Source: Haliotis rufescens (Eukaryota). From it: a stretch of DNA of 64,000 bases. Below the pieces are notes generated by a model. The model was not told the DNA's origin and searched no databases. It saw nothing but the letters and a program-made list of their open reading frames with translations. Positions 17,017 to 61,371 of this stretch are shown one piece after another (position 1 is the first letter of the stretch; each line of letters starts with the position of its first letter). The translations under genes were made by a program, and so were the position numbers. The stretch spans positions 1,798,001 through 1,862,000 of the forward strand of contig NW_025963902.1 of the NCBI RefSeq assembly GCF_023055435.1. The letters are read 5' to 3'.

Positions 17017-17017
17017 C

Positions 17018-17048
<31 letters not shown>

Positions 17049-23127: not shown

Positions 23128-26100
23128 TCACAGAGAACATCTAAGTTCAAGCCCCGTTCCATCCAAATGCCCTCTTATTGCGTCGTCAAATTCTTCGTCT
23201 TGTGTCACTGTGAGCCAGTTCTTCCATTCTCCTACCTGACCTACAAAGCATGAACAATGAATCAGCAAGGACGCATCGTCAGTAGCACACATATGACTGA
23301 ATCAACATTCTTAATTCTGTTTCTTGTTTGTCTCCACAGCAATATTGCAGCCATAACAGAGCCGCCTGTTTATACCCCATCTGGGTAAGGCCAACCAGTG
23401 TACCCTGTCTGGCGCTCGGCATTAGGGGGCTAAAACAAGGACCGGTCGGCTCGGAGTCAGTATACTGTGTCTGAGTGGGGTATTCATGTTAAACTGCGGC
23501 ATGGTATCTCAGTGAGCTAGCACTATAAATCGGCATCAATACGGACTAGTACAAGCAGCCACACAAACACACACACGTACATGCACGTCGCTATATAAGT
23601 GCAATAATCTTGGACGCGACGTTATACCCCATTTCACCTCACCTCACCATCCAGTGATGGTATGGTATTGATATCTGTAGGGTACGATGACACGCAACCT
23701 GGCAGGCCCAGACAACCCAATCCCCATTTCAAAGGGCTCTGACTACAAGTTTTTAGAGACCCGGATTTGCCATTGGGACGTTATCAATTACGCCTTACAC
23801 TCTACTATGTATATTAGTATCTGAACAAAAGCGACAATAATCCACAATCCATAATCATAAGAAATATTGTACAATGTGCAATTCCGACATTACCATAAGC
23901 ATGACTGTGTATATGAATCACTATCAAATGGGGATGATACCAGGTGTTCGCGAAAGGATTGGCTTATCTTCCCCAACCAATGGCACATGTTACAAGCACA
24001 TGCAAAGGCCAATCAACTGTTTCCCTTAAAAAAGGGACTTGCATTGGACATCAGTTTTCTCACTGACGCATCAAATTTGAAAGTGTGCTCAACCATGAGA
24101 CATAATGAAAGCGTCACCCAGGTCTTGAATGTTGTAACACTGATCAAACAACTCTTAAACAGAAGTCGCCTATTGAAGTCATTGAGGTGAGGTGAAATGG
24201 GGTTTAACGTCGCGTCCTAGATTATTGCACTTATATAGCGACGTGTATGCGCGTGTGTGTGTGGCTGCTTGTACTAGTCCGGACTCATGCCGATTTATAG
24301 TGCTAGCCCACGGACTGAGATACCCTGCGGCAGTTTAACATGAATACCCCACTCAGAAACAATATACTCCGACTCCGAGCCGACCAGTCCTTGTTTTAGC
24401 CCCTAATGCCGAGCGCCAGAGAGGGGAACAACAAGTGCGATCTTTTAACGTATTTTTGAAGTGTTTGAAGAAAGAGCATGCTCGATTGAACCTCGAAAGT
24501 TGTGAAACGTTGACACCAAAGTCTGAAGCTGATGGCATATTGTTCGTCATAAAGGGAATGTTGACTATTGGAAAGTTGTCATACAGTCCAGTGGATAGAT
24601 TTTCGTTACTCTCAGTATTTCAGATTTCTATTTCAATCTTCTTGATGAATCAACTTTATTATTATTAAACTTTGCGCGAAACTTTAGTCAGTTTCTTGGT
24701 CGTGTTAATACGAATGTGCAGGTGATGTAACATAAAGCATGGTTAATTTTAATATGTTATCGAGATGTCTGGGCCTTTGGTTTAAGGACTTTGGGCGGAA
24801 ATCAGCCTAGCTTGTGTAATCGATCCTTTGCATTGAACACTGATGCCGAAAGGGTTTAATCCTCTTTGGAAAACATGGTGAGTACGCCAGGAGAAGACTT
24901 GCTGGGGCGGCGTATGTCATTATTAAATCAGTAACTCACCCTCGGTGTCGTACATGTCTGACGTGAGGGGCATGCCGTCACAGTGGGCCTCCGTCTTTAC
25001 GCGTTTAGCTGGCTGCATTTTGCTGGTGTCACAGGTCGCCTCCACCAAGTCGCCTATAGCTTCTTCATCCATGTCAAGATCCAGAAACTTGCAAAGACCT
25101 CGCGTTTGTTTGTAGGGGTTCTGTTGAAATAATCGAGGCATTAAAATTCAGATGAGATGTGAATTCGGTTTACCGATGCTTTGAAGAGTATTTCAGTTAC
25201 ATCACCACACGTCAGCTTGATGTGGGAGGGAAGTGATGTTTATCACTCCTATGAAACCCGCGAGCACGAGTATGGTGTGGACAAACCTACAAAGATATTC
25301 AGGACGAACTGGGATTCAAACCCACGATCATAGGTTTCTTGCACGCCTATTGGGTGCAACCCTGTATGCCAAACTGCGACGCCTCCGTACAGGACTATCC
25401 TTACCACGTTAATTTCCCCCTTCTGTATGTATATATTGTTCAGGTAGAAAACTTGACTGTTTCCGAAAATAAGTGACATTAACATTCACGCTTACAGACC
25501 AAAAGTCTTCCTTATTGGCGGCCATATTGGTCGAAGTGCAAAGATCAGGTCAAAGTAAAAACATAAACAATCACAATATATAATATTATTATATAATATC
25601 ACAAAGAAAATGGAACCTGTATCCCGAGACCCACTACCAGCTGCACTGGCATCGAATTTCTTTACATTTTGAACAATAACGGCCATAAATAGCGTTAATA
25701 TTGTGGCTGCAAAGGCGACCATATCTAAAACTGGATTCGCAGCTCTTGGACAAATGCAGATGACAAGATTGGTGTGAACAAGAACCAATCTCCAAGACAT
25801 ACCTTCCGTCTATATCGTTTAAAAGATTGCCTTGAGCTATTTACAGTAAATCTGCCATCACCTATATCATAATGTTTTTTTCGCAGGTCGTCAGACCTCA
25901 TATTCCTGGAATTGTTTACAGTTCTCTTACCTAAACAATCTTGATCCGGATGAGCTCGATGGTGACAGGGGACATCTTTACGTATGGTTATGCCACTTTC
26001 AGCACATTACCATGATTACTTTATAGGGTATTTGGTAATAACAACGACACATGTACTGAACATCAAAACATTAAATTATATTGATTTCACATTTTACATA

Positions 26101-29100
26101 ATAACAAGATGTAACTATATATATTGAACATATATAAAAAAAATATAGAAATAAAGACTTTATGGATAAACTTGAATAAGTGTTTATAACCTAAATAATA
26201 AATTTCATTGGTAGATAGTTACTAAGATTTAACCGCATAAGACTCAGAGCACAATAGTACAATATCATGTGAAGAATTGGTGTCAGTTAACAACTTGAGA
26301 TGAGATGCATGTCATGCAGGTAGTCATCAGAAATAATATCTTAACCATCAACCCAGATATCGTTCTTGTACATAAAGTCATTTGTGTTCTGGCTGACTAA
26401 ATCTCCTAAAAAACCAGCACACCATTAGCTAGGTCAGACCCACGGTACCATAATAGGTCTCCGGGGAGACAACATCAGACAAGCATGCAACTAGAAAGTG
26501 TTTTTACTCGTAAAAACATATGTCTCCCCCCACTCCCCTAACCCCCATTCATTCGTTTACTTCACGTTAAACCCCATCTCTTCATTCCCACCCTCCATTA
26601 CTAAAAAACAGGGACAAAAATAGAACTCCTAGAAATTTCAAACAACTAATGGGCACCACTTCAGTGCTGGGTTAATGTGTATACAAAGTTTCGCGAAAAA
26701 ATATTAAACGGTTTCTGAGTTATGGTCAGGAAACAAAGCTTACCCCCATTCAGAGTCTATGTTCAACTTATCTCCATGGAAACGAGAAAAAATAAAAATG
26801 TCAAAAATCTCTAAATAGCAAAAGCCACCACTTCAGTGCTGGGTTAATGTGTATACAAAGTTTCGCGAAAAAATATTAAACGGTTTCCGAGTTATGGTCC
26901 GGAAACCAAGCTTACCCCCATTCAGAGTCTATGTTCAACTTATCTCCATGGAAACGAGAAAAAATAAAAATGTCAAAAATCTCTAAATAGCAAAAGGCAC
27001 CACTTCAGTGCTGGGTTAATGTGTATACAAAGTTTCGCGAAAAAATATTAAACGGTTTCCGAGTTATGGTCCGGAAACCAAGCTTACCCCCATTCAGAGT
27101 CTATGTTCAACTTATCTCCATGGAAACGAGAAAAAATAAAAATGTCAAAAATCTCTAAATAGCAAAAGGCACCACTTCAGTGCTGGGTTAATGTGTATAC
27201 AAAGTTTCGCGAAAAAATATTAAACGGTTTCCGAGTTATGGTCCGGAAACCAAGCTTACCCCCATTCAGAGTCTATGTTCAACTTATCTCCATGGAAACG
27301 AGAAGAAATAAAAATGTCAAAAATCTCTAAATAGCAAAAGGCACCACTTCAGTGCTGGGTTAATGTGTATACAAAGTTTCGCGAAAAAATATTAAACGGT
27401 TTCTGAGTTATGGTCCGGAAACGGTGGGAACACCGACGCCGACGCCAACGCCGACGCCGACGGGAACCGTGCCAAAAACAATATGTCTCCCTCCATTCTG
27501 GGGGAGACATAATGACATAAGCTCGATAACTTTAAGTCTTTAACTAAATAGTGTTAGCTGTTACGATGTAAAAAAGAGATTGAATCTTACCAACTGAAAT
27601 AATGCATGAAAAGCAAAAAATAAAAGACACAACAGGTTGGTATGATCAAAAACGTGTATTCAAATTAACAATCAATATCAATGACAGAGTCACTATAGCT
27701 AATAGAACGGACAAGTCGCTGGTGCACAAGGTCACACGACATGATACAGAAGGTACAATGACAATACAATGATCCGATAACAACCTCAAAATGTTGACAA
27801 AGTATGCTGCACGTAAAAACCACAATCAGAATTCCCTGATTTTCTGTATCAAGAAGTAATCAGGAACAAATTGGACAAATATGAATTTTAAGATCTAAAA
27901 TCAACATCATGATAATACCTTCAACACAAACAGAAATGGCAATAATTTCAGTGTCAAGTATTACCAAGGAAACCATGAGTCAGAAACAAGCTCAGCTAAT
28001 GAGCAAGTGAGTATGGCTTTACGCATCTTCCCGAGGCAAGGGAGTTAACTGACTATAAGAGTCCAGTTTCCACCCTTGCCGAACTAGGCTGGTATCATGG
28101 AGTTACATTTTGGCTGGACTAACGAGTCTATGCATGGTCCAATCAAAATCGCGCTCCGAAATCGAAAACCGGTTCGCAAACTGTCATGTAGATTTCGGTC
28201 GATTGGAGGATTTGCAAAGCATGTGCACCGCTAACTCAACAGATATATTCTAAATCGTTTCATGTTTTTAATCAAGGTGCTCACGTGATTTGATGCACTT
28301 CGCGATGTAAGACTCGTTTTATCACAATATCAGATCGTCTTAACTGGGCGCCACCGTTTTGTTTGAAGCAAACGCAAGTGATACGAGAGGGGGAATCTGA
28401 TTGGTCCATAGGAGAGGCATAGAAGGAATATAACTTGTAATAGCCACTGGTGGTGGTACGATCGAGCCCAGGAAATTGAGCATAGCTCGGCAAGGGTGGA
28501 AACTGGATTTTTAAAGTCAGTTCACTCTCTCGCCTCGGGAAGATGAGCTTTACGCCGTGTTCAGCAATATTCCAGCAATATCATGGCAGGGGTACCAGAG
28601 ATGTGTTTCACATATTGTAACCATATCGGGATTCGAATCTGGGTCTTCGGCGTCCATCACTGGGCTACCCGATCGCCCCAGTTCAACTAATGATACCTTC
28701 TACACTAAAACCTCTACTGACAACAGGGAAAGTGTTTGCAGGTAAAGGACTTGCAGAAGCAGCACCACACAACCATTTCTAGAAGTCCCCAGAAATCATT
28801 CCATCCCAGTGTGATACAATTAACTTCCATTTAGTGAAATACATCAAGGATATGGACCTGTTCAGATGAGGATACTTCGCCTCAGGTCTCCAGCAAATGT
28901 CAAAACAAATTCACAAATGGGAATAGATATTTCCCACTTTCGTTTATAGTCATAACTAACTTAACTGATGGTTTGGTCAAGGTGACACATAATTCCCTGA
29001 CATCAGGACCAATAAATATGACAACAAGGAAGAGTCTTTAATGCTTAATTTTCATTGTTGCAGTGACTGATTAAAGTACCTCTGACAGTCTGAAAATAAG

Positions 29101-32100
29101 ATTTAAAAATATCAAAATCAAACAAAATGGTTTTTTTCCAAATTTGCCTGCTGCATGTCTTCTAAAACGGGGAACTATCTAAAACATGCACAAGGCATGT
29201 CTACTGTAATGACATCACTTCAAGTCGTATGACATGTCTGGTAAGGGAACACATGCAAGATGCAGTATAAGTTTTCACCAGAACACCCTATGACATTAAT
29301 AAGAATGTTATACATATTTTGATTGAATGATATCACTTAAGACTTGGTAAAAACATGTCAAACACAGTATTACTGTAAAACAGAAAGTCCTGTACCTCCA
29401 ACGACATTAACATGAAAAGTAAGTAAGACATCACTTTTCTGGTTGAATGAAATCACTTTTGGTTTGAAAAACACATATATTATCCAGAGATCCAACAAAT
29501 GTCCTTGGAGATATTGCTTTCCTGAAAACACATTGGTCAAATAATATTAGCATTAGTGTTAGGTTTAATTGTTCAAATCTATTTGTAACTATATTTTCCT
29601 TGAAAACACTTACATTTTATTCCATCAGTGCAATGACATGAGTGAGTTGTGTTTAGCGCCGCTTTTAACAGTCTTCAAGTTATCTCAGGGCGTGTCAGCT
29701 TAATGTGGGAGGAAAGCCCGAAGTGATGCAGGTCTAAGACGTTTAACACTTCCATGAAACCCACGAGCATGGGTATGGAGCTGACAAACCTAGAAACATA
29801 ATCGGGGCGAACCGGGATTCAGACCCACAATCATAGGTTTTTGGTGTACCAAAGGGACGCAACTCCGCACAGCGAATCGCGGCGACTGAGCCACCCGTGC
29901 CCCGCAATGACATGACGGTCAGAATACTGAACTAAAAGAACATCGTGCAGACTCCGAGTTTTGTCACATTTATCGACTTGTGTTGACATATAGACCCGTG
30001 AAGATCCGGGGTAGAATTGGTCTTCAGCAACCCATGCTTGTCGTAAATGGCGACTATGCGTGTCGTAAGAGGCGACTAACGGGATCGAGCGGTGAGGCTC
30101 GCTGACTTGGTTGATGCATGTCATCATATCCCAAATGCGTGGATCGATGCTCCTGATGTCAATGCCTAGATTGTCTGGCCCAGACTCGATTATTTACAGA
30201 CCGCCGTCATATAGCTGGAGTGCGGCGTTAAGCAACAAACAAAATGTGTTGACATATTCTATTCAAAAGAAGTAAAAGAACACTTGATTCTTTCATAAGA
30301 CTACAGCTTACCATCAGTTTTGATTTCAGACAGATTTGCTAATCATGTCTTAAACAGATGGTTTAACATCATTCAGAGAATCGAACTGTATCCCGTCATG
30401 AACTGAATTGTTATTAGCTGTCACTAGAATCAAATATTTACGATTTTATAAAGCGTTTTTGTACTTGAACTTGTAAGTCAGTTATAGATTTCTTAAAAAA
30501 GACAACTCTCATATATACGTAGTATTTCATTTGACAGTAATGTGGTCACTGGTCATTGTCACATTTGAGCAGATACTACCAGGATAAGTGCGGTATATAA
30601 ATGTATTATATTATAATAATAATTAACACTGTCAACATGGTCAAACCATGACAAATACTTGATTTTGTTATTGTTTCACTGAATACAATAAATGATACAT
30701 CAACTGCTGACTTGTTATCGTATTCATGAATAAATATTCATATTCGTTCCCTATATTCGTGATATGTATCCCATTCGCCACATAGTACATCCCTCCATCA
30801 CAGTGGCATTGATAAACCATACCTAGACTTCATGTCACAGTCATATGCAAAGAAATATTGTCCTGATATGAAAGGTGCAACGTCCAAGTAAAAGAGAGAA
30901 CTGGTTGAAGATAAGATGGATTCAGGTGCTTAGAGATTATCCCCAGACTACTGATAACCCAGGCACAACTTCCTGGAAATAAACATCCAGTGAACCAATG
31001 GAAGATGATTGGAGTGTGTAGGGGTGTGTGTGTTATGCTACAAATCTAAACTGCCAATATCAGAAGCAAAGAATAAAGATCTTAGATTCCTTGAAAAAGG
31101 AAAATTATCCCTGATGATTTCCAAGTATATTATGCTGCACTGCCATGTTCAAATGCAGAAAAAAACCAACTCTTGCTTCCAGATCATGATCATTTCAACG
31201 GCACCGATTCAGAATTGTGATAATTTGTCCTGTCACCCTTACTTATTCTTGTTAAGTAATGCGCATTCATTACAAGTTGAAATGCAGTCAGTTTTGAACG
31301 GACTCTGTGACTTTCAATGAAACAAGGTGCCATGTGTCAGTTCACACTTTGTTGACTATCTTCACCTTGCTGCGTTAACCCATCGATATGTCCAGTTTGT
31401 CTAACAACCTACACCTTTAAGTCCCTTTAAGGCTTCAGCTTCTTTCAAAAGGATGACCTTGACCCTCAATCTCAGTCCATCAATGGCTTGATTACTTCTT
31501 GTTGACACAGAACCCAAGATAACCTGTGCATTTATGTAAAATAAGCAAACAATTAACCAGTAAACAATTAATTTTGACCTTTTTGCAAAAAATATGCATG
31601 AATTTGTTTAAAAAAATATATAATTATATAACCATGTGATAACACTTTGCACTTTAACCTAATGTATCCTTTTCAACCCCTGTACCTGTATTTCATCACA
31701 GATTGTTAGTTCACTGATTGAAAGCACAGATACATTAAATTCTACTGCAGTGAATAATGCATCGACATTATAAAAGGGTACTTCATGCATATCACTGTCA
31801 TGGCTGCTGTTGGTTGTTAATGCAACATGTTGTACACCAGGTGTTGCACATGATGCAAATTAGAAGTCACCTGAAACAACATTTTAATCAATATTACATG
31901 AAAAATGTCCACAGTACTCATTGGTGTAAAAATACCCAACTGACTGGAATCAATGGACTACAAATATCCTGAGTTACCAAAGAAAACTATCAAATATGTG
32001 AATGCTAGCTTGTTGGTAAACGGGGGCATTGGTGGCCCAGTTGTCTATGGCACTGTGATTCGCTGTGCAGAGTTGCATCCCTTGGGCACACCAGAAACCT

Positions 32101-35100
32101 ATGATTGTGGGTTGGAATCCCGGTTCTCCCCGATGATGTTTCTAGGTTTGTCTGCACCATATCTGTGCCCATGGGTTTCACCAAAGTGGTAAACGTGTGA
32201 GACCTGCATCACTTCGGGCTTTCCTCCCACATTAAGCTGACAAGTCGTGATATAACTGGAATACTGTTAAAAGCGACATTTACACTCAATGGCCCAAACT
32301 ATTACCTGGAGCCCTGTGAAACTATGGTGCTAGTTTGTACAGACATCAACACAGTGGCTGAGTTAAGTATATGAAGAATCTGAACAACCAATGAATGACC
32401 ATTTAAGTAACCTTGACCCTCAATGACCACCAGAAGTATATGGACCAAATTTCATCCAAATGCAGTAAAGAATTCTTGTGTGTTGGACCATGTGCTTGTG
32501 GAGATAGGGGTTGACCTTCAATATCAGCTACATTTATTTCAAGAACAAGGCCAAGGATACCAACACATCAGCAAAATATGATGTCCCCAGGAGGAATTCA
32601 TTGCAGCAAAGCAATGTTGCATACAATAACAGTACAGTGATCCCTCGCTACAACGCTACCTTTGGGGTCCAAATTATCGATCAACGTTATGGACGTTATG
32701 TAGTAGAATGTAGATCCCCATGATTAACAACTGATATTCATGACAGAAGAATCCCTTGTCATACATGACTTCGATAAGTATTAAAATAATACAAACACTA
32801 CATGATAAGTTTTAGAAATATCAGGTGTTTTAGAGAAATGGCAAAAGCTCTTTATGAATGACCTTACACATTTTACATGTAGGCATGAAATGTATATGTC
32901 CTTGACCAACAGTAAGTCCACTTCTAGTTTGGCAGTACACAATTACTACATATCCAATGAGCACCTCAGCTATCTTGGTCATGCTAGGTGTTTAATAACG
33001 TTTTTATTCCATGACCTTGAGGATGAAATTGACCATTGACACGACAGACAAAGTGTCAAAAATATTTCTAAAGGCAATGAAGGAGATACACATGATATGA
33101 TATCCCTTAGATAACCAAGGTGTGTTGGGATTTTTTTTAAACAATAATAATTTGATCCAGAAAATACTGGAATTTGTGTTTTTTACCTTAGTTTATACAA
33201 ACAAAAACATTTAACTAGCCATACAGGATGTGGTAAATATGTTTATAATTTGAATGAAATGTGGGTCTTGATAAAGTGTGCTAAAATTTATTTGGTCTCA
33301 AACAAAAATTCAAGACCAGATACCAATTATCAAATGGCCGGTCCCTCAGTAAGAACAAAATGTTGAGATGGTAATGCATGCCGTCCAAGCCTCACACCAC
33401 ATTTATATCCTTCTATGGACCATGTCAACTGTGTTTGTGTCTTTTGTGTCTCTCCAGGAATCCTGATTTCTTAAATACTTTCCCACACACATCGCACTCA
33501 AATGACTTAACTCCGCTGTGATGCCGCCTTTTGTGTGTCTGAAGATTACTTGATCCTGTAAATGTCTTCTCACATTCATCACACTTGTAAGGTTTGACTC
33601 CACTGTGGCTCCTCATATGCATCTGCAGCTGCCCGGATGTTGTGAACGCTTTCCTACACTCACAACACTGAAAAGGTTTCACGCCACTGTGGCGCTTCAT
33701 GTGTACATTCAGGCTGCTCTTTTCCGTAAACCCTTTCCCACACACGCTGCACTTACAAGGCTTTTCACCAGTGTGGCTCCTCATGTGTATTTGCAGCTTA
33801 ATTGAACGTGCAAAGGCTTTCCCACAAACCCCACACTCAAATGGCCTGACTCCGCTGTGACCCTTCATGTGTTCCTGCAGGTTACCTGATCTTGCAAACG
33901 CTTTCCCACACTCACCACACACAAACGACCTGACACCACTGTGACACTTTGAATGTTTCTGTAGGTTACCTCGTTGTCTAAACCTTTTCCCACACTCTTT
34001 ACACTCAAAAGGCTCATCTGTCCTGTGACACATCATGTGCCTCTGCAGGTCACCCGATTCTGTAAAAGTCTTTCCACACTCATTGCACCCAAATGGCCTA
34101 ATTGTACTGTGACTCCTCATGTGTTTTTTAAGATTATGCGGAAGTCCAAATGTCTTCCCACATTCCATACACACCAAGTTAGATTTGACTGCACTGTGAA
34201 CAATCATGTGTCGAAGTAAATGGGCCGATTGTATGAACTTTTTCCCACAGTCTGTACACTCAAAGGGCTTGACTCCGCCATGACTGACCATGTGAGTATT
34301 CAAGTTGCTTGATTGCGTATATTTCTTCCCACACACTTTACACTCATACGGCTTCACTCCGCTGTGATACAGCATGTGATTCTGTAAGTTACTTGTCTGT
34401 TTAAATTTTTTCCCACACACTGTACATTCATAAGGCTTGAGTCCGCTGTGATTGAGCATGTGTATCTGTAAGTTACTGGTTTGTGAGAATGTTTTCCCAC
34501 ACTCAATACATTCATGAGGCTTGATTCCGCTGTGACACAACATGTGTGTCTTTAGGTGTCCTGATCTTTTAAATCTTTTCCCACACTCAGTACACTCATG
34601 CCGTCTTACTTCATGTTCCCTAGGATGGCTCCTTTCTAGCAGTTCTCCCACACATCCAGTGTCCTGGTCACTGAAAGAGTTGCTGATCTGAACTGGACTT
34701 GTTTCTGGCAGTTCTCCCACACATCCAGTGTTCTGGTCACTGATAGAGTTGTTGATCTGAACTGGACTTGTTTCTATAAGTTCACCCACACATCCAGTGT
34801 CCCGGTCACTGATAGAGATGTTGATCTGAACTGGACTTGTTTCTAGAAGTTCTCCCACACATCTAGTGTTCTGGTCACTGATAGAGTTGTTGATCTGAAC
34901 TGGACTTGTTTCTATAAGTTCTCCCACACATCCAGTGTCCTGGTCACTGAAAGAGTTGCTGATCTGAACTGGACTTGTTTCTGGCAGTTCTCCCACACAT
35001 CCAGTGTTCTGGTCACTGATAGAGTTGTTGATCTGAACTGGACTTGTTTCTATAAGTTCTCCCACACATCCAGTGTTTTGGTCACTGATAGAGTTGTTGA

Positions 35101-38100
35101 TCTGTACTGGACTTGTTTCTATAAGTTCTCCCACACATCCAGTGTTTTGGTCACTGATAGAGTTGCTTATCTGAACTGGACTTGTTTCTAGAAGTTCCCC
35201 CACACATCCAGTGTTCTGGTCACTGATAGAGTTGTTGATCTGTACTGGACTTGTTTCTAGAAGTTCTCCCACACATCCAGTGTTCTGGTCACTGATAGAG
35301 TTGTTGATCTGAACTGGACTTGTTTCTAGAAGTTCTCCATCACATCCAGTGTACTGGTCACTGATAGAGTTGCTTATCTGAACTAGACTTGTTTCTAGTA
35401 GTTCTCCCACACATCCAGTGTTCTGGTCACTGATAGAGTTGCTTATCTGAACTGGACTTGTTTCTAGGAGTTCTCCCCCACATCCAGTGTTCTGGTCACT
35501 GATAGAGTTGCTGATCTGAACTGGACTTGTTTCTAGGAGTTCTCCCACACATCCAGTGTTCTGGTCACTGATAGAGTTGCTTATCTGAACTGGACTTGTT
35601 TCTAGGAGTTCTCCCACACATCCAGTGTCCTGGTCACTGATAGAGTTGTTGATCTGAACTGGACTTGTTTCTGGCAGTTCTCCCACACATCCAGGATGTC
35701 CAGTTTTCTGGTCACTAATAGTGTCGCGGATGTGTACTGGACCTTGTTTTTCCATATTTTGGATATTACTGCCTTAAGTATCTAGCATGAACTTCAAAGA
35801 TGTGTTTTCCTTCACACATCTTCTTAAGTTGGTTCAGCACCACACATGAAACCAGCTTAAAACTGAAAAGGAACCACAGAAGTATATTATTATGATATTG
35901 ACATGATAACAAGTTGTAAGTTACATTGCAGAAATACCCCTGCTAGAGAGTGAGTAAGAGGGTGTGGTTTTATGACGCTTTTAGCAATATTCCAGCAATA
36001 TCCCGGTGGTGGACACCAGAAATAGGCTTCACATACTGTACCCATATGGAGAATTGAACCCAGGCCTGACAACGGACGCTTTAACCACTAAGCTACCCTA
36101 CCGCTCACCAGCTAGAGGAACAAATTAAATAACTGATTCTTGTCAGGAGTAACAGTTTACTAGTCACTGATAGCATGAACAAAGACTGTAGGTACATGAT
36201 AACACAAGATCACATGTTTAATCACATTACCCCAGGTCATTTGTTTGGTTCATGCAGCAGTAAGCAAATATTTCATTATTTTCACTGTGGCCCATAAACA
36301 TGATAAATGAGGGTGCCAACCCCTCCTGCCATGAAACCTGAATACCATCTAATTGCTCACTCTGAGTCTCATTGGCTTACCCCTAAATCCTGAATACCAC
36401 TTAACAACAAATTTCACCAACAAAAATTTATTGAAAACATTTCTGGGTCATATAGGGTGTGATTTGCAGTTAGATCACTTACGTACAACATTATTGCTAT
36501 TCTTTTTTAATGTTTAACCTCATAGCAAGTACTTATTGTATTTGCACCAATGGAACAAACACCGCAGAGACCCTCTACAAAGAACCTACCCGTGGAGATC
36601 TAGGTTAGAAGTATTGTGTACAGTCATTCATGTAATGCTGCTGCAACTCAGCTTGGAGAGGTGGGTGTTTGATGTTTGTTGTTTAACGCCACACTCAGCA
36701 ATATTCCAGCTATATGACAGTGGTCTGTAAATAATCGAGTCTGGACCAGACAATCCAGTGATTGACATCATGAGCATTGATCCACACAATTGAGATACAA
36801 TGACATGCATCAACCAAGTGAGCCTGACCACCCAATCCTGTTAGTCGCCTCTTACGACAAGCATAGTCGCCCTTTACTGCAAGTATGGACTGTTGAAGAC
36901 CTATTCAACCCCGGATCTTCATGGAGAAATGATTGAGTGAGAACAATTAACTGTGATAACAAATGCTTCCAAATGAGTGTACCACCTGTCCCAAAACAGA
37001 ATAATTTCAAGTCAGTGAGAGTAACTTAGTGAGTTCTCAGTGACAAATATAGGTATGTCTTTTGGAATGTTGCCATTTCACTTTCTTCAATCTTATCACC
37101 ATTGTAAGCATGATACATATACATAGTATAACTGACATATATATTCTGATAAGAAATACACTCATTATTCAGCGTGTTTGTGGTTGATTTTATTCCAATT
37201 AACATTGAAACCTCAAAGATACACATGATATACACATGATACAGGTTGAAGGGTTCCGAGCATGTGCATGACAGCCTTGGACCCCTCAAAATTTTCACTG
37301 AGTGTCCCTTGACTCAAAAATAGTTAGACCTAGGTAAATTGACAGTTTCACTTCAGAGCTTGTCATGACATTTCAACCGAACAATCCTTCCCCACCCCTT
37401 CTGTACTGCTGCCCTTGAAGATTCGGGTTAGAATATGTCTTCAGCAACCCATGCTTTGGTTGGGATTTGGTGGTCAGACTCGGTGACTTGTTTGATTGTT
37501 TCATATCCCAATTATGTGTATAAACGCTCATGATATCACTCTCTGGATTGTCTGATCCAGACTTGATTAATCGAAGGTAGCTTGAATATTGCTGAGTGTG
37601 TCATTAAACAACAAACAAAACATTGGTCTGCCATGTGTGTGTTACCTGACAAGTTATACATTTACAGGGTCAAACCTGGATTACAGCCTTACCAAGATTT
37701 TGAGCCAAGACAGGAGAAATGTCAAATGGGAACAACTGATTGGTCGATACAGATCCAAGACATCATCATGCAAATTCCCACACATCACAGGTGGGATCTT
37801 AAGGTTGGTCATGACAGCTATCATTGTATATTTAGCATTGTTATTGTCAAGTAATACCTCCAACTACGCCTTTACTAAAGTAATAAGCTGAGCATCAGGT
37901 AAATGATGGCCTCTGGCCTCATGGCAGTACTGGCCTCCAGGCAGTAATTGTTCAGTTATTTCTTAAATATTTAGTCTGAGGTACGACTAACTTTGGCTGT
38001 TGGCCTTGTTGTGGGCACAGGTACTACCAGATATCTTTTTGAATACACAAATGTACCCTAGCTTGGCAATATATTTACAGTACCATTTTCACAATGCATG

Positions 38101-41100
38101 AACCCGGTCTCAGTCCTGTGTGCAATATGCCATACAATTCCTACAGAAAGTTACCGGGGGTATAATTTGTGTATACAGAACGCTACCTGGGGTACAATTC
38201 TGAAGTACCTGTGCTGACAATGAACTCTGAATATTGGTGCTCATTTTGGTGCATGAATATGGTCTTCAGTTGATTTCAGATATAAAAGTTACCCAGTTAG
38301 TGCCCAAACATCTACCTGCTAGAACTTGTGACATGGTTATTTGGGCATAATCTCTATTACTATTATGTATATGTGAGTCTGTAAATGACCATGTACACAT
38401 GGATCTTACCTCTAGAGACAAGAATAAACTTAACTAGAATCAGCTGTATTTCCATGATTACATTAATCACAAACCAATAAGACGTGATAGGTACAGTAGA
38501 TATGTAGAGTGGGTGAACACTCCCAGCGATTCTTAGCCGAGAGCCACAATGGGATCTGACAGTCAAGCAATGACCCTACAGTATGACGCTCTCGGATAGC
38601 TGGTTCTATATAGAGTGGGGAGTTGGATGGTTAACATGAAATCAATCAATTTCATTATCTTAATTAGAACTTTATCCTGGGTATCAACTAGTGGTGGGAT
38701 GATACACCGATGCATCGTGATTTTTTACTTCTCGATACAAGTATCGATCACAGTCACACACAAAGTAAAAATTTTTAATTCTGACCTTAAATGTTTGCTT
38801 TAATAACTGTTCCACTAATCAGTAGTGCAAATTAATATTAAAAACATAAATATTTTCATCCATTGTGCCATACTTCACACTACCAACTGTAAATCATCAG
38901 TGAACCCAACAGTGAACACACAATGCCATTTAGAAAGTGGTTAAATGTAACAAATGTTTTATTTGGGATAACAGTTTCTTAGTAAAGCAAAGATTCTCCG
39001 GGATTCGAACCCACACTGCCAGAGTGAGGCACCTAATCTTTACTGAGAAAGTGTTATCCCAAATATAACATTTGTTACATGAACCCAAAAGGTTCTCACC
39101 ACAGGAACTCGATGATAGCGTGTATAACATAATATATTCGTATCGAAAAAAAATCACACCCCTCTATATACATGATATACGTAGAGAATCTATGTATATA
39201 GAGTGGTCTGATTTTTTCTCTCTATTCAGTGTGCAGGCAAAAACGGCACCTCAGCAAAAGGTCATAGATTTCTTTGGCGAAAACTGCCACTATGTGTTGG
39301 CGAAAACGGCACCTCTATTTTTGATAACGATAAGAACGATTTAGTATTATATCTTCATCACATATTTATAACATCAGTTCATGTACCACTGAGCATTGTG
39401 ATAGTAGCTGACTCAGCTAATATCTCGATAACAGGCCACAGAAAGTCTGGTACCACATACACAATTGGTCCACTGGTCACTGTGGTCAGATGGTACAGCA
39501 TGTTGATTTTTTCTGACATTCTTCTTGCATGCAATTCATCCAAAGGCCATTGTGAATAATATTGATCAGACATCACCATGTTAGGCCTCTTAAATACAGT
39601 TTCAGCTTGACATTAAGTTAAACTGAGTAAATGTACCTAAACTTCAAGGCGTAGAGTGTTTTCACAATAAGTTAGCTGAGCCCCCTATCAGAGTCGGCGA
39701 GTAAATTGGAGTAGGGGACTAATTTCTAAGGTAAACTTGTTTTAACATTTCACAATTATTTGTGTTTGTAAGAGATGATGTGAGTTTAATTTCATTTATT
39801 TTACTTCAAAGCATGTTATGTTTTCACAATAAGTTGAGTTGCGTATAGGCAAAGTTGGAATATAGTTGGCGTAGAGGCTAATTTCTAATGTAAACTTGTT
39901 TTAACATTTCACAATTATTCATGTTTGCAAGTTACCATGTAAGTTTAATTTCATTTACACATTTATTTGACCAAGGTAAAAAAACATAAGGTGCCGTTTT
40001 CGCCAGGCAATAGTAGCCGTTTTCGCTTGAGGCGAGGTGACGTTTCCGCCAATCGGTGCCGTTTTCGCCAATCGGTGCCGTTTTGCTCAGGTGCCGTTTT
40101 AGCTATAAGTTATAACCCCCCAAATATGTTATACACGCGATCATCGAGTTCCTCTGGTTTTCACGGGGCAGGGTTAAAAGATGATTTTAAAAGTAACAAC
40201 CTACTGCACTTTCAAAAAGTAACCTCGGTCCGCAAATGATCCGTATCGAGCTAGAGACATACCCGGAGGTGTCATGAATTTGACCATGAAACTTATAATA
40301 ATAACAAACCAAACTCGGGCCAGACGAGACCTCTCTGACTGATTGCAATCTTAAAGAAGGCTTCACTCTTTGTAAACGCTTGGGGAAAGTCGGATAACGT
40401 ATCGGGTCGCGCGGTAGTGTATATCTATATCTTTTCCATTCATCTTTCTAAACATGTATACCTACCATGTTACTGCGTCAGGAGATAAATGATTCCAATG
40501 AACACATCGCGTGAAAGAGTCAAGCTTCGAGCTTTGTTTTTCTCAAAGCTCCTCACAGCGATCACCAGTGCGACGATAGGAGGCAAAAGACAGTGTTACG
40601 CGCTGAGATAGAGTTGGGGTCAAAGGGAAGTAACTCTAAATATCGCACCAGTCATTTGTTGCTAAGAGTGTTCAAGTTCGATTCTAACTTGACCAATCTT
40701 TTCAAAATGTTTTTCATAATTTTTTGAAGTGTCAACAGGAATTTTGATCAATGTGTGATGCTATTTAGATAAATCATGGACTTATATTTTTTTTGATGAG
40801 CTCTTGTTTACATATATCCGTGACTAAATAAGTAACTAAATACATTAAAATATATTTACAAAGACGCCTGCTCACGTATATATGCCAAGCATTTCATAAC
40901 ACCGAGTCGCCAAAGAGCGAAGTGTACGTGCGAAAAGTTCTGGTTGCACATTTTAGTTCACATTCATGAGGCTGCCAACCTTTTGGTACGCGGGATTCGG
41001 GAAGCTATTTCAATAGAAATGAGTCGCGTCCAAGATTATTGCACTTATACAGCGACGTGCATGGACATGTGTGTGTGTGTGGCTGCTTGTACTAGTCCGG

Positions 41101-44100
41101 ACTCATGCCGATTTATAGTACTAGCCCACGGACTGAGACACCATGTCGCAGTTTATCATGAATACCCCACTCAGACACAGAATATACTGATTCCGAGCCG
41201 ACCAGTCCTTGTTTTAGCCCCTTTATGCCGAGCACAAGGCAGGGTAACAACAAGCACCATCTTTTAACGTCTTTTAAATTGGTATGACGCGGTCGGGTAT
41301 TTCAATAGAGAGTATGCGGGACTCAGCAGTGTGGTATCCATGACGCAAATAAAATTGCAAACAAACATAAAACATTGGTCAACCATGTTAATTCGGGTTA
41401 AACCATTCCAGGGCTATGAAATCGAACGTAAATACAGTTAATTATATAAGCAGATAGTTCGTGATACAAAAGTTTTTAATGCATCACAAATATCCGTGTT
41501 TCAGAACAAAGATAAAACTCGACAGATGAGATGACATATATCATCATGATCACTTAAAACAGATTTGATACCCCAATCCCACCATCTCTGCTCGGGAGTA
41601 CACTTGAAATGTAGCATTGATTCAATAAAATGTAGAATGTATTTTGATATTTGAAAAAAACACAAACAAACATCACATGCAATTCCGCAATTCCAACAGG
41701 TAATAGAAAATACAAATAAACAGCTGTTAATGGAAATGCTCCTGTGGATAGACTGCATTCCCTTTCATGTGCTCAACAGATTGTTTGAAGCAACCACAAT
41801 GAAGCCAGATAACATGATGAGCTATAACGAACCAGCAAGCTTGGTATGTTAGCAATCCTTTTAGTTTCAGACTTGAGTACCCTTGGCTCTCTCATAAAGC
41901 ATCCCCATGAACATTGGCCATCGTTGCACTTTGTTGTTGAAACACGTGGTGCTCATAGACGCCAGTCAGGTATCATATCCCAAATATCTCTTTTGTAATA
42001 TATTATTCTCAGATCTGCTTCGAAGACGGCTCATTTATATTAAAGTTCAAGGTTATCCTGAAGGTCATGCCTTAAAAAGCGACTAACAAGATACTCATTT
42101 ACCGAAGATCCGTTAAACTTCGTTGAGACTAGAAAGGGTCACGAGTGACCAACGTTTGAGGTAAAGGACACATTGAAGGTCATTCGCAAAGAGGGTTTGC
42201 CAAGGCTCTTTTCTTCAGACATGACAATTCCCGTGCATGTAGTCGGAAGCGCTGAGGATGGGTATACTAGAAGCGTAACCGCTTGTAGATTTACATATCT
42301 GACGTCGTGTGTATGACTATTTCACAATATTCAAGACCTACAGAGTTCACAATGATCCAGAGAGGAGAGATATAGAGAGAAAGAAATTGTCACTTACCTG
42401 GTGACCTGGTGATGTTATTGCCTTGTCCTGACTCCGGGACGGCCCCCGTGGTCTAGTGGATACATCGTATGCCCGGTCAGCGGCATGTGGTTTGATCCCG
42501 TGCGTCATACCAAAATACGTTAAAAGATGGTACTTGTTGTTGCCCTGCCCGACGATCGGCATTAAGGCCTAAAACAATGACTGGTCGGCTCGGAGTCAGT
42601 ATACTATGTCCGAGTTGAGTATCGATATTAAACAGCGGCATGGTATCTCATCAGTAGGCTAGGACTATATAACCGTCATTAGCTCGGACGAACGCGCGTG
42701 CAATCACAGGCACACACAAACGCAAGCACGCGCGCGCACACACACACGTGCATGCACGTCTCTTTTTAAGTGCAATAATCTTGAACGCCATTACAGCTCA
42801 ACTGACTCAATAAGGCATCAACTGTACACAATTGGCACACAATTATTTTTTTCTGGTTGCAGGGTTCACTTTCAAGAAGAACACGTGAAACCGCTCTCAC
42901 TGAGGACCTCCTGGTCACCTCTACTGCTGACACGGCTGCCTGGACGGGTCACTGCCTACTGTAGTAGCGCCCTCGGGTTCTAGAAACCTATGACATTGGG
43001 TTCGAACACCAATTCGCCCTGATTATGTCCCTAGGTTTGGCAGCACCATACGAGTGACTCACTCAGTCAGTCTACCTGCTTGATTGGAAAACAAAGATAT
43101 TCCCCTGAATTCCTACCCTAGCAGCCTTGGCCCCGTTACACAAAGACATCTTAGCATACTTTAACACTGGCCTACGATAGTCGTAGCGCTAAGATCGCTT
43201 TGTGGAACGGTGCCCTGGTCATGATTCTCGCTGCCCATGTGTATATCAACCTGCATTGGCACATGCCATCTTTGATAGTGGACATAATCTCCCACATAAA
43301 TAACTAATGACTTAACACGACCACAAAGCAGTAACGGTAAATTACGAACCGGAACATGCCAAAGAGTTTTTGTCTGGCGGTGGATTCAAAATTGTGGCCG
43401 AAGCAGTGACATATTCGGAAGCCTTTGAGGGCCATTTTTTCTTACATAACAGGGATAATGCGACTGTTTTGTGTCTTCTCGTCACGCCAGGTCTGCGTTG
43501 AGTTGGCCAAAGTGCCAGGAAACATTATTTGCAGACAAATGATATTAACGGCATGTACATACAGAAGGGAAAATAATACTGACATACCATTAGCTATGTA
43601 AACGTGTTTGTTAGAGCCCGAGAACTGCTTGGGTCACTACTTCAAGATATTTTTTTGTTTCTCATGGGGAGGCCGTACGTTTTTGATTTCTAACATAACA
43701 TATTTTTCCAGGGCATACAACATATCCAGGGAACAACTCGCGAACATTCTCAGATATCAATGAAAGTCAACTTGTTTCATTAAAATGGCATCTGACGAGA
43801 ACTCTTGTAGTATTCTCGAGACATCTCAAAATAATTTTGCGGTTTTGTGGTAGACATGACTCTGTCTTTCTAAGTGAGTGAGGTGGGTTTAACGCTGCTT
43901 TTAACAGGATTCCAGTAATATCGCGGTCTGTCCGCTTAATGTGGGAGGAAAGCCCAAAGTGATGCAGGTCTCACACTTTTATCACTTCGGTGAAACCCAC
44001 GAGCACGGGTATGGTGCTGACAAACCTAGAAACATGGTCGGGGCGAACTGGGATTCGAACCCACAATCATAGGTTGCTGGCGTGCCCAAGGGACGCAACT

Positions 44101-47100
44101 CTGCACACCGAATCGCGGCGACTTAGACAACTGGGCCACCCGTGTCCCCTGTCTTTCTTAACAACTTGTTAGATGCATAAATACTCTGCAGGTCAAAGAA
44201 AGTATGGACCCATGTGTGATGGGGGCTAAAACTGAAACAAACAAGAAATGGTTTCTAGTATTCCATGGTGGTGTATTTGATACGGGTATCATGGTTGTGT
44301 TTTGGACCTAAGTTTGCAGTGTTTCGGTTACTGTATTCAGACTACTGACGTTCTGATATCGCTTGTAATTTTGGGACAAATGAACGTTTCAATTAGATGC
44401 GTTTTTGGCCCGGCAGTTTACATTAATACACATTGGATCCTACCGCTTGGGTGTCTTCAAAACGGAGTGTGTGGACCAGGAGATCTCGATGCCCAGTAAA
44501 GTCCTGCTGATATTGCCTCACATGGTGGAACCACCCGTCATATCCAGCTGCAACGTCAAGAACTTCATGAACACATCGTGAACTTTAAGACAGGATTAAT
44601 GAACAGGCAAATGACAAGCTGAGAAATAAGACAAATGAGTACAGTCGTACTGACTTACAGTATTTCTCTACACATCTTCGGATGATCTGAAATTTCGTCA
44701 CTGATCATTGTGCTATATTCCATATTTTCCTGTATACTTGCATTTCCGAGAATTTGAAATAGTGCCACGGTTTCGTAGCTCACCTGGGTATGTAGCCAAC
44801 AGCTTTTAAATGTCAACAAAATCAGTATCAACATCAGTGGATGTCAGCATTGCTTTTCAAATAGTTTCTGCATAAATTCGTAAATACATGATAATAGTAT
44901 TAACGAATATTAAACAAGTAACTTCATTTTACACCTTTTTTAATCTGCAAGAGTGAATGTACTATCGTATACATTGTTGCAATGTAAAACATTTAAATTT
45001 ACTGTATGCAATGGCTTATGCACCTTAAAGGATAATGCCACACACGACTTCCAATTGGTTCACGAAGAACACAATATTATTCCAATAATTTGAAAAAAAT
45101 ATGATGTCATCATTAGGAGAAACGTAATAGCAATGTTGATCTTCCTCTGTTTGGCAATTGCAGAGGAGAAGAAGAAGAAGATCCAAAAGTGCTTTTAGAG
45201 AAGATGAGAACAGGAGTGGCTGCGCAGTAGCCATAAAAAGGTTTTTCAATCAGTATCCAACACGTCTAATATGAATCAGGGCCTCAACCACAAAGTTTTC
45301 ATGTGATGATACGATTTACGATACATTTCTTTCTGTATCAAAACGATACATTTACTGAAATATATTACTTACTTCTTGTTTAATAAGCTCCAGCATGTTT
45401 GTCAGTCAAATATCGCAAATGAGTTGTCATCAGTGTTTCATGTTCACTACTAAATATAGCCACTACATCGAGTCTAAAGCTGGATTTTCTTTTTGAAGCT
45501 GCTGTGAAATATTTACAGGTCAATAGGTTTCGATATATCTAACGTATCTTGATACGTATCATATCGTGACTTTACTGGATCGTTTCACCCTAGGTCTAGG
45601 CAGTATAGGAGATGTATTATGTTTATGATGTATATGTGTAGACACTTTAAATAATAAGTATTCTGGTTAATCTTTTTTTAACCTAAGGCTAGTTTGAGGA
45701 CTAGTATACTAGCTGCTAAGACAGCGACATTTAACCTCTTCAACAGGTTCCTTTGTCACACAAACGTTCACATCTGTGGAGCCCCACTACTGACTACACC
45801 AAATTTTCATTACATTTTAAACAAAAATGGCTGAACAGTGGCCACCCATAGTTTCAATATGGCTGCTGTGGCGACCATATTGAAAATCTGATTTGAAGCT
45901 CTTGATCAAATATAGGTGTAATCACTGGTAAGATGAAATATGTTAAGTTTTATCTTCATAAGTCCAGTGATGTCAAAAGAGATGATGTTATTAAAGTACT
46001 AGGAAATGCATATTTAGAGAATGTAGAAATATGGTGAGGTCAGATGACAAATGTAACATATTGCAAAAGCGGATCAGACATGTTGGGCTCCACTTCAAAA
46101 TGCATGGACACAACTGAATTACATTTTGAACAAAAAGGCCGTGAACAGTTATTTATCTAGAAGCCTATAGGAACTTCAACCTCAGCTGTCAGCATCAATG
46201 GGATGAAGCATGAAGATTCAGCTTCATTGGTCGTGTGGTTCCTGAGGTGGAGTTGTTTAAAGATGACGCCGGATGTCGGAGAACCAGGCTGTAGGCATAA
46301 GCCCAATTTCTTTTCAATAAGGTGAGCAATAAATTAATGTTATTCATTACTAGCTTTGGTATTCTCTACACAGAGCGAATATCTACACAAATACATTACG
46401 TTTAAGGAATAATTATATGTATGATTTCAATGATTTAATTTGTTCTGTGTGACATCGGAGAACAAATCCTCAATATTACAGCGAGGATATTAAACTGGTT
46501 TAAAACAAAACAGAAATCCAAATATATATCCCATTAAATATTCACCCAACAGGGACAGTATGGAAATAACGGATCGCGAACAAGAACCTTCCTTTGACCT
46601 GGACGTCTGTATGAGTATAGTCACCCTTCCTTCACATTAAAAAAAAATATGACGCTCGTACAAATGGGAACCAGGGTCGCAAATTAGGTGTGATATCTGC
46701 TCCTATCCGAAAAAATTATATGATCAAACCTTCTTTTATAATCTTATGCTGTACTGACAGGAGGCAAAATTGCATAAACCAGTTATATAATCAAATCTGA
46801 AGAAAATTTGGTCATAGTATCTCGCGTTTCTGATATGAATAAACATTTTAAGAGTTTATGCTGGGAATAAGATTATTTGCATTAAATAAATATTTTCATT
46901 GTTCATCAATCAACACTTACTGGAATGATTCAAAAATGCCTGAAGGAAAGACTGAAAGGTTCTCCTGCATCCTCCTCTCCCCTTCTGTGTGTGGAGATAC
47001 TGGGACACGCACACATCCTTGGGGTTCCGGACGAGGTAGAGAATCTTTGGCTTGTGGGTGAGGATCTGTGACGGGAGGAACCGGAGGGGGTAGTGGGAAT

Positions 47101-48585
47101 GGAGGAGCCTGGGGGAGGGGAGGTCAGCGAGCTGGTCAGCTGAGGTACGGTCCAGTAGGTGGAACTGACCAGTCCGGTGATGGTCGTCTGAGCCGGGGGT
47201 CGGGAGGCTGGTAAGGATATTCCACAATGAAGAGCATCCTGGAGAAGAAACATGCAGTGTGTGATTAGGTTTTCATGACGCTTTAGTATTAGTCCATCCA
47301 TTTTACAGCCAGGGAACACCTGTAATGGTCTTCCGACAAAGTTTGCAATTGAACCCGGATGTTCGGAATGAGTGAGTTTACGCCGCTGTTAGCAATAGTC
47401 CAGCAATATCACGCGGAGACCAGAAATGGTCTTCAAGCATTGTACAAATGTTGGGAATCGAACTGGGTGTTCGGGTGGCGAGTCAATATTTTAGCCACTG
47501 GACTGCCCCGAGTGTTGAAGAGGATGGGGTTGAGTGACTGAGCAGAAGGGGTTTTACGTTCCGGTGTGGGAATCGAACCCGGGCTTTTGCGTGACGTGTG
47601 AACGCTCTAACGAAAAGGCTGTCTTCATCCTGGATTATTGAATATTGTGTCATATATACGATCAACGAACAAAATAATGAACTGAAAAATCGAACTGATG
47701 TTGTGATTGGGATATGTTGACTGTTCATTTGGGGACTAACAATGACTGATAGTATTTGTAAACACTTCAGTTATATATGACGTGTTCATGTCATACTAGA
47801 GCAAATTCCGCATACACACACACAAATTATATATATAGATACACATTCTACATATAGATATTGCTTTTGTGATTGTTGTTTAACGCAACAGGCAGCAGTG
47901 CTTCAGCCATATGAGGGCGGCCTGCAAATAGTCCGAACTGGGTCAGACAGACCAGTGATTAATATTATGAACAATGAACCACGTCACCGAACCAGACCAC
48001 CCCATCCATGTAGTTGCTGCCAAAAACGATCAGCACAGTTTTCTCGTTCTCTCCCTCCCTCCCTCCTTCTCACACTCTCTCTCCCTCCCTCACCCCCTCT
48101 CTCTCATTCTCTCACTCTCTCTCTCCCTCCTCACTCTCTCATTCTCTCACTCTCTCTCCCTCCCTCACCCCCTCTCTCTCTCATTCTCTCACTCTCTCTC
48201 TCCCTCCTCACTCTCTCTCTATCTCTCGCGCTCTCTCTCCCTCCCTCTCTCTCTCCCTCTCTCTTTCTCTCGCTTCTCTCTCCCTCCCTCACCCCCTCTC
48301 TCTCTCTCCCTCCCTCACCCCTCTCTCTCTTTCTCTCTCCCTCCCCCACCCCCTCTCTCTTTTTCTCTCGCTCTCTCTCTCCCTCCCTCTCATTTTGCGC
48401 TTTGATTTTCTGCACTCACCTGAATATGGATATCCAATAATGAACACATCGTCTTGCCTCACTGCCAGATCCCTCACCTGTGTGATGTGTGTATGTAGGG
48501 CCCTGTCTCCGGGATACACCTGGAACTCACACCCATCGTACTCCATCAAGGGGAGGTAGTCCCCAGGTCGTGGCGTCTCACACAT
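23128..48585 (-). CDS. Cytosolic sulfotransferase-fold protein, 5 coding exons, ~293 aa, degenerate PAPS motifs
   Basis: Exons 48585-48420, 47238-46921, 44547-44444, 25120-24940, 23240-23128. All introns are GT-AG with phases 1,1,0,1, matching the + strand SULT. Motifs [49 protein letters not shown]. Confidence 0.85.
26490..27512 (+). mobile_element. Non-autonomous Helentron-type (HINE/pearl-like) element with ~4.5 x 172-bp central array
   Basis: atatgtctccc near the 5' end; cttcagtg at 26659, 26831, 27003, 27175 and 27347; (gacgcc)n microsatellite; 3' hairpin tatgtctccc...gggagacata. Confidence 0.82.
28024..28545. mobile_element. MITE with ~63-bp TIRs inserted into a family-1 SINE
   Basis: catcttcccgaggc...cccttgccga versus tcggcaaggg...gcctcgggaagatg; target (g/a)gctttacg duplicated (8-9 bp); the SINE continues to ~28680. 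Confidence 0.88.
29992..30244 (+). mobile_element. SINE-like family 3 with a non-tRNA structured head
   Basis: 13-bp TSD tgtgttgacatat; (caaa)n tail. Copies at about 595-835, 1658-1828(-), 36668-36925(-), 37411-37620, 47872-48010(-), 56430-56550 and 61547-61775. Confidence 0.85.
33425..35755 (-). CDS. C2H2 zinc-finger protein, 776 aa, 14 tandem fingers plus an N-terminal 23-aa repeat array
   Basis: 14 CxxC-x12-HxxxH units (the last two HxxxxH) with SGVKP/TGEKP linkers; splice acceptor ttccttttcag before 35862 indicates an upstream exon. Confidence 0.93.
34634..35689 (-). repeat. Coding 69-bp minisatellite, 15 full copies plus a partial
   Basis: Encodes [13 protein letters not shown](S/N)NSISDQNTG in frame with no indels. 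Confidence 0.95.
39236..40104. mobile_element. Foldback/MITE with repeated subterminal ggcgaaaacggcacc motifs
   Basis: aaaacggcacctcagcaaaa versus ttttgctcaggtgccgtttt; internal ~140-bp direct repeat. Confidence 0.7.
40460..40640 (-). promoter_or_regulatory. Candidate non-coding first exon/promoter of the zinc-finger gene
   Basis: Donor catg|gtaggt at 40466/40465 in a locally CpG-rich stretch upstream of the acceptor at 35862; no transcript evidence. Confidence 0.3.
43129..43217. mobile_element. Short palindromic MITE
   Basis: ggccccgttacacaaagacatcttagc versus gctaagatcgctttgtggaacggtgccc; a related left end forms the ABHD-unit anchor near 21940. Confidence 0.6.
43873..44148 (-). mobile_element. 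SINE family 4 (expanded tRNA head, V-domain-like body)
   Basis: A box tggcccagttgtctaag; B box gggttcgaatccc; cgtgggtttc...tttcctcccaca core; TSD ctgtctttct. Copies at about 25165-25395(-), 29640-29903(-), 32022-32285(+) and 42970-43065(+). Confidence 0.82.
45740..46333 (+). mobile_element. Decayed Helentron-like non-autonomous element
   Basis: atggctgc...ccatattgaaaat block shared with about 3580-3620, 18160-18200 and 25700-25730; gacgcc-like motif and hairpin-like 3' end. Confidence 0.4.
48048..48392. repeat. CT-rich compound microsatellite in the first coding intron of the minus-strand SULT-like gene
   Basis: Almost pure (CT)n/(CCCT)n. Confidence 0.95.

Positions 48586-61299: not shown

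Positions 61300-61371
<72 letters not shown>

Follow-up and report, generated by a model that had tools for sequence, protein, structure and literature searches.

Can a complete zinc-finger gene reside in a single intron of an unrelated gene on the same strand, and does such an arrangement alter the gene that hosts it? This question is raised by 64,000 nucleotides of Haliotis rufescens DNA (GCF_023055435.1, NW_025963902.1:1,798,001-1,862,000, forward strand; hereafter the window, to which positions refer unless a contig is named), which we compared with the H. rufescens genome (G000), where contig C124 contains the window. A reading made beforehand from the letters only (the sequence-only reading) had placed a C2H2 zinc-finger (ZNF) gene inside an intron of a minus-strand sulfotransferase (SULT)-like gene. 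In this study, we found an intact five-exon SULT-like gene and an intact 14-finger ZNF frame on the same strand, which very likely lies in one 19.3-kb intron of that gene; this frame is likely a gene in its own right, with a separate promoter near 40.5 kb and a separate poly(A) site. In this account as a whole we have good confidence. The layout is real and ordinary, as same-strand nesting is a described class.

The host gene comprises five minus-strand coding exons (Table 1; 48585-48420 is the part of exon 1 used in the model) with GT-AG borders and phases 1, 1, 0 and 1, and the joined product has 293 amino acids (aa) plus a stop. Exon 3 (104 bp) ends with ..FEDTQA at phase 0 and the donor GTAGGA, exon 4 begins with NPYKQ.. 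behind the acceptor ..TTTCAACAG, and the GT..AG gap between them measures 19,323 bp; the coordinates proposed earlier for both exons were all correct. The plus-strand SULT gene of the window has the same phases and likewise a 104-bp exon 3, and its equivalent intron, previously put at about 1 kb, measured 997 bp. The five-exon model was letter-identical to P0002 (XP_046333716.1, 'sulfotransferase 4A1-like [Haliotis rufescens]'), and full-length orthologues were present in H. cracherodii (97%), H. asinina (79%) and H. rubra (78%), in all of which the joint region FEDTQ(A/T)NPYKQ was unbroken. Exon 2 scored above the Pfam cut-off for PF00685, and 47 PDB sequences matched the host at E<=0.001. 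The examined 204 kb contain eight canonical SULT genes, all oriented opposite to the host. The host also carries two tandem arrays, a 25-bp minisatellite of 44 copies in the first intron (48806-49905) and a 172-bp array of 4.5 copies (98%) in intron 3 (26652-27422).

The claim that 25120 is the only continuation of exon 3 held up well. Exon 4 had one match in G000 (one of four candidates scored), no SULT remnant was detected inside the 19,323-bp gap by tblastn with both SULT proteins (best E 1.1), and blastn revealed no second copy of either exon 3 or exon 4 in the window; the possibility that the gap conceals further SULT exons was rejected on these searches. Exon 2 had 104 matches in G000, the next best at 43% identity, and a minus-strand exon-1-like match at C124:1777806 (E 0.035) was discarded as a dispersed repeat. 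With exons that are in frame, phase-matched and single-copy, and a joined protein in four species, the exons on both sides of the gap are, as judged from sequence, one gene.

Contigs of four of 24 public runs, whose RNA status was guessed, were mapped to 35700-47300; the runs were chosen for holding exon 5 and downstream sequence (19 rows cover part of 22300-23240). Exons 2 and 3 were joined, with the intron absent, in contigs of three of the four runs (X4, X5 and X7; two studies and two organism labels), and these contigs therefore represent spliced molecules. In the X4 contig (1579 nt), exon 3 occupied record places 671-774 and exon 2 places 775-1095; the X5 (912 nt) and X7 contigs (798 nt) showed the same arrangement. 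The record listed for X1 contained exon 2 and ended 30 nt later. Past the exon 3 donor, 670 (X4), 507 (X5) and 364 nt (X7) had no listed piece on 35700-47300, and thus these parts are neither read-through of the intron nor a join to the candidate ZNF acceptor at 35862. Host exons 4 and 5 together amount to 294 nt.

Two considerations count against this account. P0002 probably derives from the same assembly and is then not independent of it, unlike the proteins of the other three species, and the four protein records all come from automatic modelling; in addition, the 44444>25120 joint in RNA is one that we infer. The corresponding rival is an artefact, either two separate truncated genes, as the sequence-only reading had allowed, or a misassembly that put a 19-kb piece into the intron. 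In its favor, the order of the exons is that of the assembly, and the intron contains the 172-bp array and a 69-bp tandem array. However, the two exon groups complement each other exactly, both in phase and in coverage, each is single-copy, the joined protein exists in three other species and the window has no N anywhere. An artefact of either kind is thus extremely improbable.

The ZNF coding sequence (35755-33425) lies entirely between host exons 3 and 4 on the host's strand, a complete open reading frame (ORF) just as had been described. Its single-copy open frame runs from 35773 to the stop at 33425 and, from the ATG at 35755, encodes an intact protein of 776 aa with 14 C2H2 fingers (Cx2Cx12Hx3-5H, spaced by about 28 aa; PF00096 E 1.1e-78). 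The 23-aa repeat in its N-terminal half showed 93% matches among copies and a CpG observed/expected ratio (o/e) of 0.05. Its 69-bp unit was not found elsewhere in G000 among 150 of 158 candidates scored, and the 23-aa repeat had no convincing match among 1.84 billion representatives. Exact look-up and word searches of proteins of 426-1358 aa and 30-425 aa yielded no ZNF orthologue in the protein collection, and a phmmer scan with the N-terminal 120 aa gave nine matches, the best 45% in repeats and none an orthologue. Over the first fingers, the nearest paralogues showed 51-64% identity (96 matches; 150 of 2053 candidates were scored), and the non-coding parts shared only dispersed repeats with the 70 kb of C2H2 cluster compared; therefore, the ZNF copy appears to be old. 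Two miniature inverted-repeat transposable element (MITE)-like elements with terminal inverted repeats were also noted in host intron 3 (28024-28545 and 39098-40158).

CpG content distinguishes the ZNF unit from the rest of the intron. The o/e of 30500-39500 was 0.31, compared with 0.82 and 0.86 in the two remaining parts of the intron (0.86 for 40701-44443), and the seven lowest-CpG of 201 3-kb segments covering 204 kb of G000 started at 31001-37001. As a control for composition, copies of three dispersed repeat families inside and outside the block were compared: TpG or CpA stood at 25 of 50 consensus CpG sites inside (4 copies) versus 84 of 537 outside (42 copies), with p 0.002 in a rank test on repeat copies. 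Young copies in the intron but outside the block had decayed at 2 of 18 (43897), 3 of 14 (29660) and 1 of 13 sites (30002). Clustered ZNF genes on C124, 4.6-5.4 Mb away and with one large coding frame each, showed a similar loss of CpG. In oyster, as excerpts of the two sources have it, methylation is mostly intragenic (PMC3840415, PMC2996979), and gene-body methylation goes with abundant, tissue-even expression (PMC3840415). Our analysis suggests that the CpG-poor block is likely the footprint of germline gene-body methylation over the ZNF transcription unit, and the sequence of the single-copy CpG-rich stretch at 40300-40700 makes it a likely ZNF promoter with a non-coding first exon. Several observations caution against this interpretation: two old repeat copies outside the block were equally decayed (7 of 12 and 8 of 10), CpG sites within one copy are not independent, the host coding sequence is itself mildly CpG-poor (0.56) and methylation is read from sequence decay only. 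If it holds, a sharp 9-kb CpG-poor block in a CpG-normal intron could be a cheap pointer to unannotated nested genes in mollusc genomes.

Whether the ZNF frame is a working gene may also be questioned. No orthologue or annotation backs it in the protein collection searched up to 1358 aa, and its expression is presumed. No contig piece was listed on the first 163 bases of the ZNF exon in the four runs, dispersed repeats swamped contig depth over 35700-47300, and the low contig cover at 40344-40730 in three of the four runs was too weak for use. The frame could accordingly be a silent or transposon-borne passenger, in keeping with the failure to find a database protein or orthologue. Against this stand 776 open codons with 14 complete fingers, paralogues no closer than 51-64% among the scored candidates (so that it is no fresh copy), a unit without bounding inverted repeats and a CpG footprint like that of the clustered ZNF genes, and we consider a passenger quite unlikely. 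A transposon carrying the whole ZNF unit was rejected, as the only bounding inverted repeats were dispersed repeat copies.

One host gene spans the gap, and its full-length transcripts must therefore run past the acceptor and the poly(A) signals of the ZNF, as had been stated. The minus strand of host intron 3 contains 1,091 AG dinucleotides and 9 AATAAA motifs, and therefore unused signals must be passed with or without the ZNF. The sequence-only reading further envisaged chimeric or truncated transcripts. Host exon 3 spliced to acceptor 35862 reads TTT TAA (Phe-stop), and thus no fusion protein can arise from that acceptor; in-frame AGs are present inside the ZNF ORF and were left unranked because of the poor scoring matrix. 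This matrix (32 paralogue donors and 32 acceptors) was over-fitted, giving the true exon 4 acceptor a score of -5.85, and acceptor strengths were not used. Truncated host transcripts are possible; no truncated SULT-ZNF transcript was among the contigs listed for the four runs over 35700-47300, where rare forms could be missed. Transcriptional interference, also suggested earlier, is possible in an arrangement known to permit it (excerpt of PMC3192792), but we saw no sign of it here, and the locus is not special in this respect.

A related possibility is that the host uses the ZNF exon as an alternative last exon or shares its leader with it, host 5' exons being joined to 35862, which would result in a truncated SULT or a ZNF translation leader, the choice regulating the host. 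The shared strand and the candidate acceptor agree with it, as does the excerpted text of PMC3192792, in which 22 of 53 human tandem nested coding genes were judged to be host alternative exons and 7 of 31 true pairs had expressed sequence tags (ESTs) suggesting interference; rare forms may also exist beyond the contig joints listed. However, three listed contigs run past exon 3 with no piece on 35700-35862, the splice itself reads Phe-stop, and the CpG-poor block starts just below 40 kb, under the unique CpG-rich stretch and away from the host promoter, with 40701-44443 being CpG-normal. An alternative exon is therefore improbable.

In the explanation that we favor, the host would be transcribed through the whole unit and exon 3 spliced towards exon 4, and, as general knowledge of splicing and 3'-end formation would predict, the ZNF exon would be skipped, its acceptor and AATAAA signals being a few of the many that go unused in a long intron. 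The ZNF unit would likely be transcribed broadly and at a steady level, leaving the presumed methylation footprint of which the CpG loss is seen. Its likely origin is an ancient DNA-level copy out of the abalone C2H2 expansion, which would have brought the promoter and 5' intron along. If exon 3 were to leak onto the ZNF acceptor, the host protein would be cut after 197 residues and no fusion would result.

Another question is whether nesting is related to the function of the host. In an alignment with solved SULT structures, Tyr54 of the host stands in place of the loop Lys48, Ser59 in place of Trp53 and Thr255-Glu256-Gly257 in place of Arg-Lys-Gly, and the host retains His104, Arg126 and Ser134 at conserved catalytic or 3'-phosphate positions. 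The C-terminal KxxxTVxxxE motif is also retained, and the replaced lysine presumably acts in the 5'-phosphosulfate loop (YPKSG). YPYSG, Ser59 and TEG were found in all four Haliotis proteins, which lack the active-SULT signature, while the loop Lys was present in 14 of 14 paralogue loops and RKG in all eight neighbors. Each host substitution is a point change located in exon 1 or exon 4, and the host gene is otherwise whole and spliced. In the excerpt of PMC1847840, the absence of 3'-phosphoadenosine 5'-phosphate (PAP) binding in SULT4A1 is ascribed to the lost Trp and the changed Arg-Lys-Gly loop. The abalone host is predicted from sequence to be unable to bind 3'-phosphoadenosine 5'-phosphosulfate (PAPS) and to be catalytically inactive. 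It appears to be a conserved, spliced and PAPS-dead (predicted) SULT in a family of about 100 loci, and a search of the ESM Atlas returned only generic sulfotransferase clusters.

Like human SULT4A1 (PDB 1zd1; PMC1847840, in part), the host has a SULT-fold sequence with the adenine-stacking Trp replaced and the Arg-Lys-Gly loop changed, but unlike SULT4A1 it also lacks the loop Lys and has the exon plan of its abalone neighbors. The host bit score was 103.7 for SULT4A1 versus 101.9 and 101.4 for other SULTs, which is no separation. With such near-equal scores and a neighbor-like exon plan, the SULT4A1 label therefore denotes a best match and not orthology; the host is possibly a convergent counterpart of SULT4A1, as its residues suggest.

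The sequence-only reading had tied the insertion to this loss of catalysis: the insertion might have damaged host expression, relaxing selection until catalysis was lost, or the loss might have let the insertion persist. Two oddities do coincide and weigh against treating them as separate. Of 15 SULT loci with an exon-1 match, only the host lacks the loop lysine, and its 19-kb intron 3 is six times the longest of the 12 paralogues measured (231-1055 bp in eight neighbors and about 0.5-3.1 kb in four of seven further loci with both exons matched). On the other hand, this is a single co-occurrence; Tyr54, Ser59 and Thr255-Glu256 are point changes common to four species whose proteins are whole and 78-97% alike, whereas a decaying gene should have acquired stops or frameshifts, and spliced host contigs are present. 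A link of this kind is very unlikely, and the sequence comparison suggests that the PAPS loss is unrelated to nesting, no causal link having been found. Even less probable is the idea that ZNF promoter activity throttles a conserved pseudo-sulfotransferase by diverting exon 3 onto the ZNF acceptor, so that nesting would be a selected regulatory switch. It takes the host to be Haliotis-wide and expressed, with PAPS binding lost independently of SULT4A1, and, if true, would yield a 197-residue host form without the C-terminal loop and dimer motif.

Nested pairs are well known in other animals, as far as the sources excerpted here describe them. In human and mouse, more than one gene in ten contains a nested one; the introns concerned are long, and the two orientations are broadly similar in number (PMC11694760). 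Human coding pairs include 75 nested parallel versus 152 nested antiparallel cases (PMC2330155 Table 2), and a neutral model predicts more same-strand overlaps than are observed (PMC2330155); compared with such catalogues, the abalone pair has the rarer, same-strand orientation. It resembles human KTI12 in TXNDC12 intron 2 and CHML in OPN3 intron 1 (PMC3192792) in that a whole coding gene lies in an intron of an unrelated same-strand host, which must splice across it with interference possible. For KTI12 in TXNDC12, interference with exonization, intron retention and cryptic polyadenylation was described in minigenes (PMC3192792). In contrast with these human pairs as excerpted, the abalone ZNF likely has a non-coding first exon and an intron, no interference product was seen, and the animal is a mollusc. 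Our searches of the literature on Haliotis nested genes, the Haliotis sulfotransferase expansion and abalone C2H2 clusters found nothing on this locus, and the first of these turned up no nested pair from Haliotis. The pair is one further same-strand nested case, and it is of value for annotation, the ZNF protein being seemingly absent from the collection searched.

Within abalone, the nested ZNF is similar to clustered C2H2 genes (C124 6.45-7.25 Mb, C312, C583 and C512) in having one large frame, a short unique N-terminus and a CpG-poor body; eight frames of the clustered genes contained 8-17 tandem fingers. Unlike them, it is solitary, has a private 23-aa repeat and is at most 64% identical over the part searched (150 of 2053 candidates scored). 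The C2H2 clusters are large and consist of single-frame genes, among which frames judged to be Gypsy-like retroelements occur at about C124:6663-6668 kb.

The features of the locus are given in Table 1. The candidate exon end at 50318..50344 likely gives an N-terminally longer form of the host, as its in-frame sequence indicates.

Table 1. Features of the host gene, the nested zinc-finger unit and the paralogue used for comparison (window positions)
Feature	Position	Strand	Basis or remark
Candidate upstream host coding exon end (MQVTDLRDK, donor GTATGT)	50318..50344	-	In-frame join to acceptor 48636; matches N-terminus of H. cracherodii P0004
Host exon 1	48420..48636	-	Acceptor 48636; ATG of 293-aa model at 48585; altered PAPS loop GYPYSGC
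Host exon 2	46921..47238	-	Catalytic His104, Arg126, Ser134; Pfam Sulfotransfer_1 E 6.7e-17; spliced to exon 3 in X4, X5, X7
Host exon 3, phase 0	44444..44547	-	Exon model and contigs
Host intron 3, 19,323 bp, GT-AG	25121..44443	-	Exon model; joint in protein models of four species; RNA joint inferred
Host exon 4, ends TEG (paralogues RKG)	24940..25120	-	Exon model; single match in G000
Host exon 5 with stop, C-terminal motif	23128..23240	-	Pfam Sulfotransfer_1 positions 226-255, E 0.0024
Single-copy CpG-rich stretch, o/e 1.07, candidate donor 40466	40300..40700	-	Likely ZNF promoter and non-coding first exon (deduced)
MITE-like element in likely 5' intron of ZNF gene	39098..40158		Inverted arms I15-I17
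CpG-depleted block, o/e 0.31 (0.34 without ZNF exon)	30500..39500		CpG counts
ZNF coding exon, 776 aa	33425..35862	-	Candidate acceptor 35862, ATG 35755, stop 33425
69-bp in-frame tandem repeat (23 aa, 15.4 copies), ZNF N-terminal half	34633..35694	-	Repeat analysis
Array of 14 C2H2 fingers	33428..34594	-	Domain matches
Candidate ZNF poly(A) signals AATAAA at 33292, 33008, 32538	32538..33292	-	Motif only
Canonical five-exon SULT paralogue, yardstick	57302..62147	+	Intron 3 of 997 bp; YPKCG and RKG intact

Other observations concern the surroundings of the host gene. A degenerate second last-exon end was found at 62539-62619 (+), about 400 bp past the stop of the plus-strand SULT gene, and again behind the next paralogue (C124:1870510). 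In one neighboring SULT paralogue the reading frame of exon 2 is broken (C124:1927619-1927935), and in another exon 3 contains a stop (C57, about 22260231-22260323). Between the two SULT genes of the window (55000-56150, +) lie broken transposase frames, which from their motifs we take to be Tc1/mariner-like. Finally, six near-identical single-frame alpha/beta-hydrolase (ABHD-like) genes on the minus strand are arranged in tandem with a spacing of about 7-8 kb (window 5536-21605 and C124:1781623-1819605); this array begins 1.5 kb below the host stop, and its copy at C124:1797249-1796467 is open for 261 aa only.

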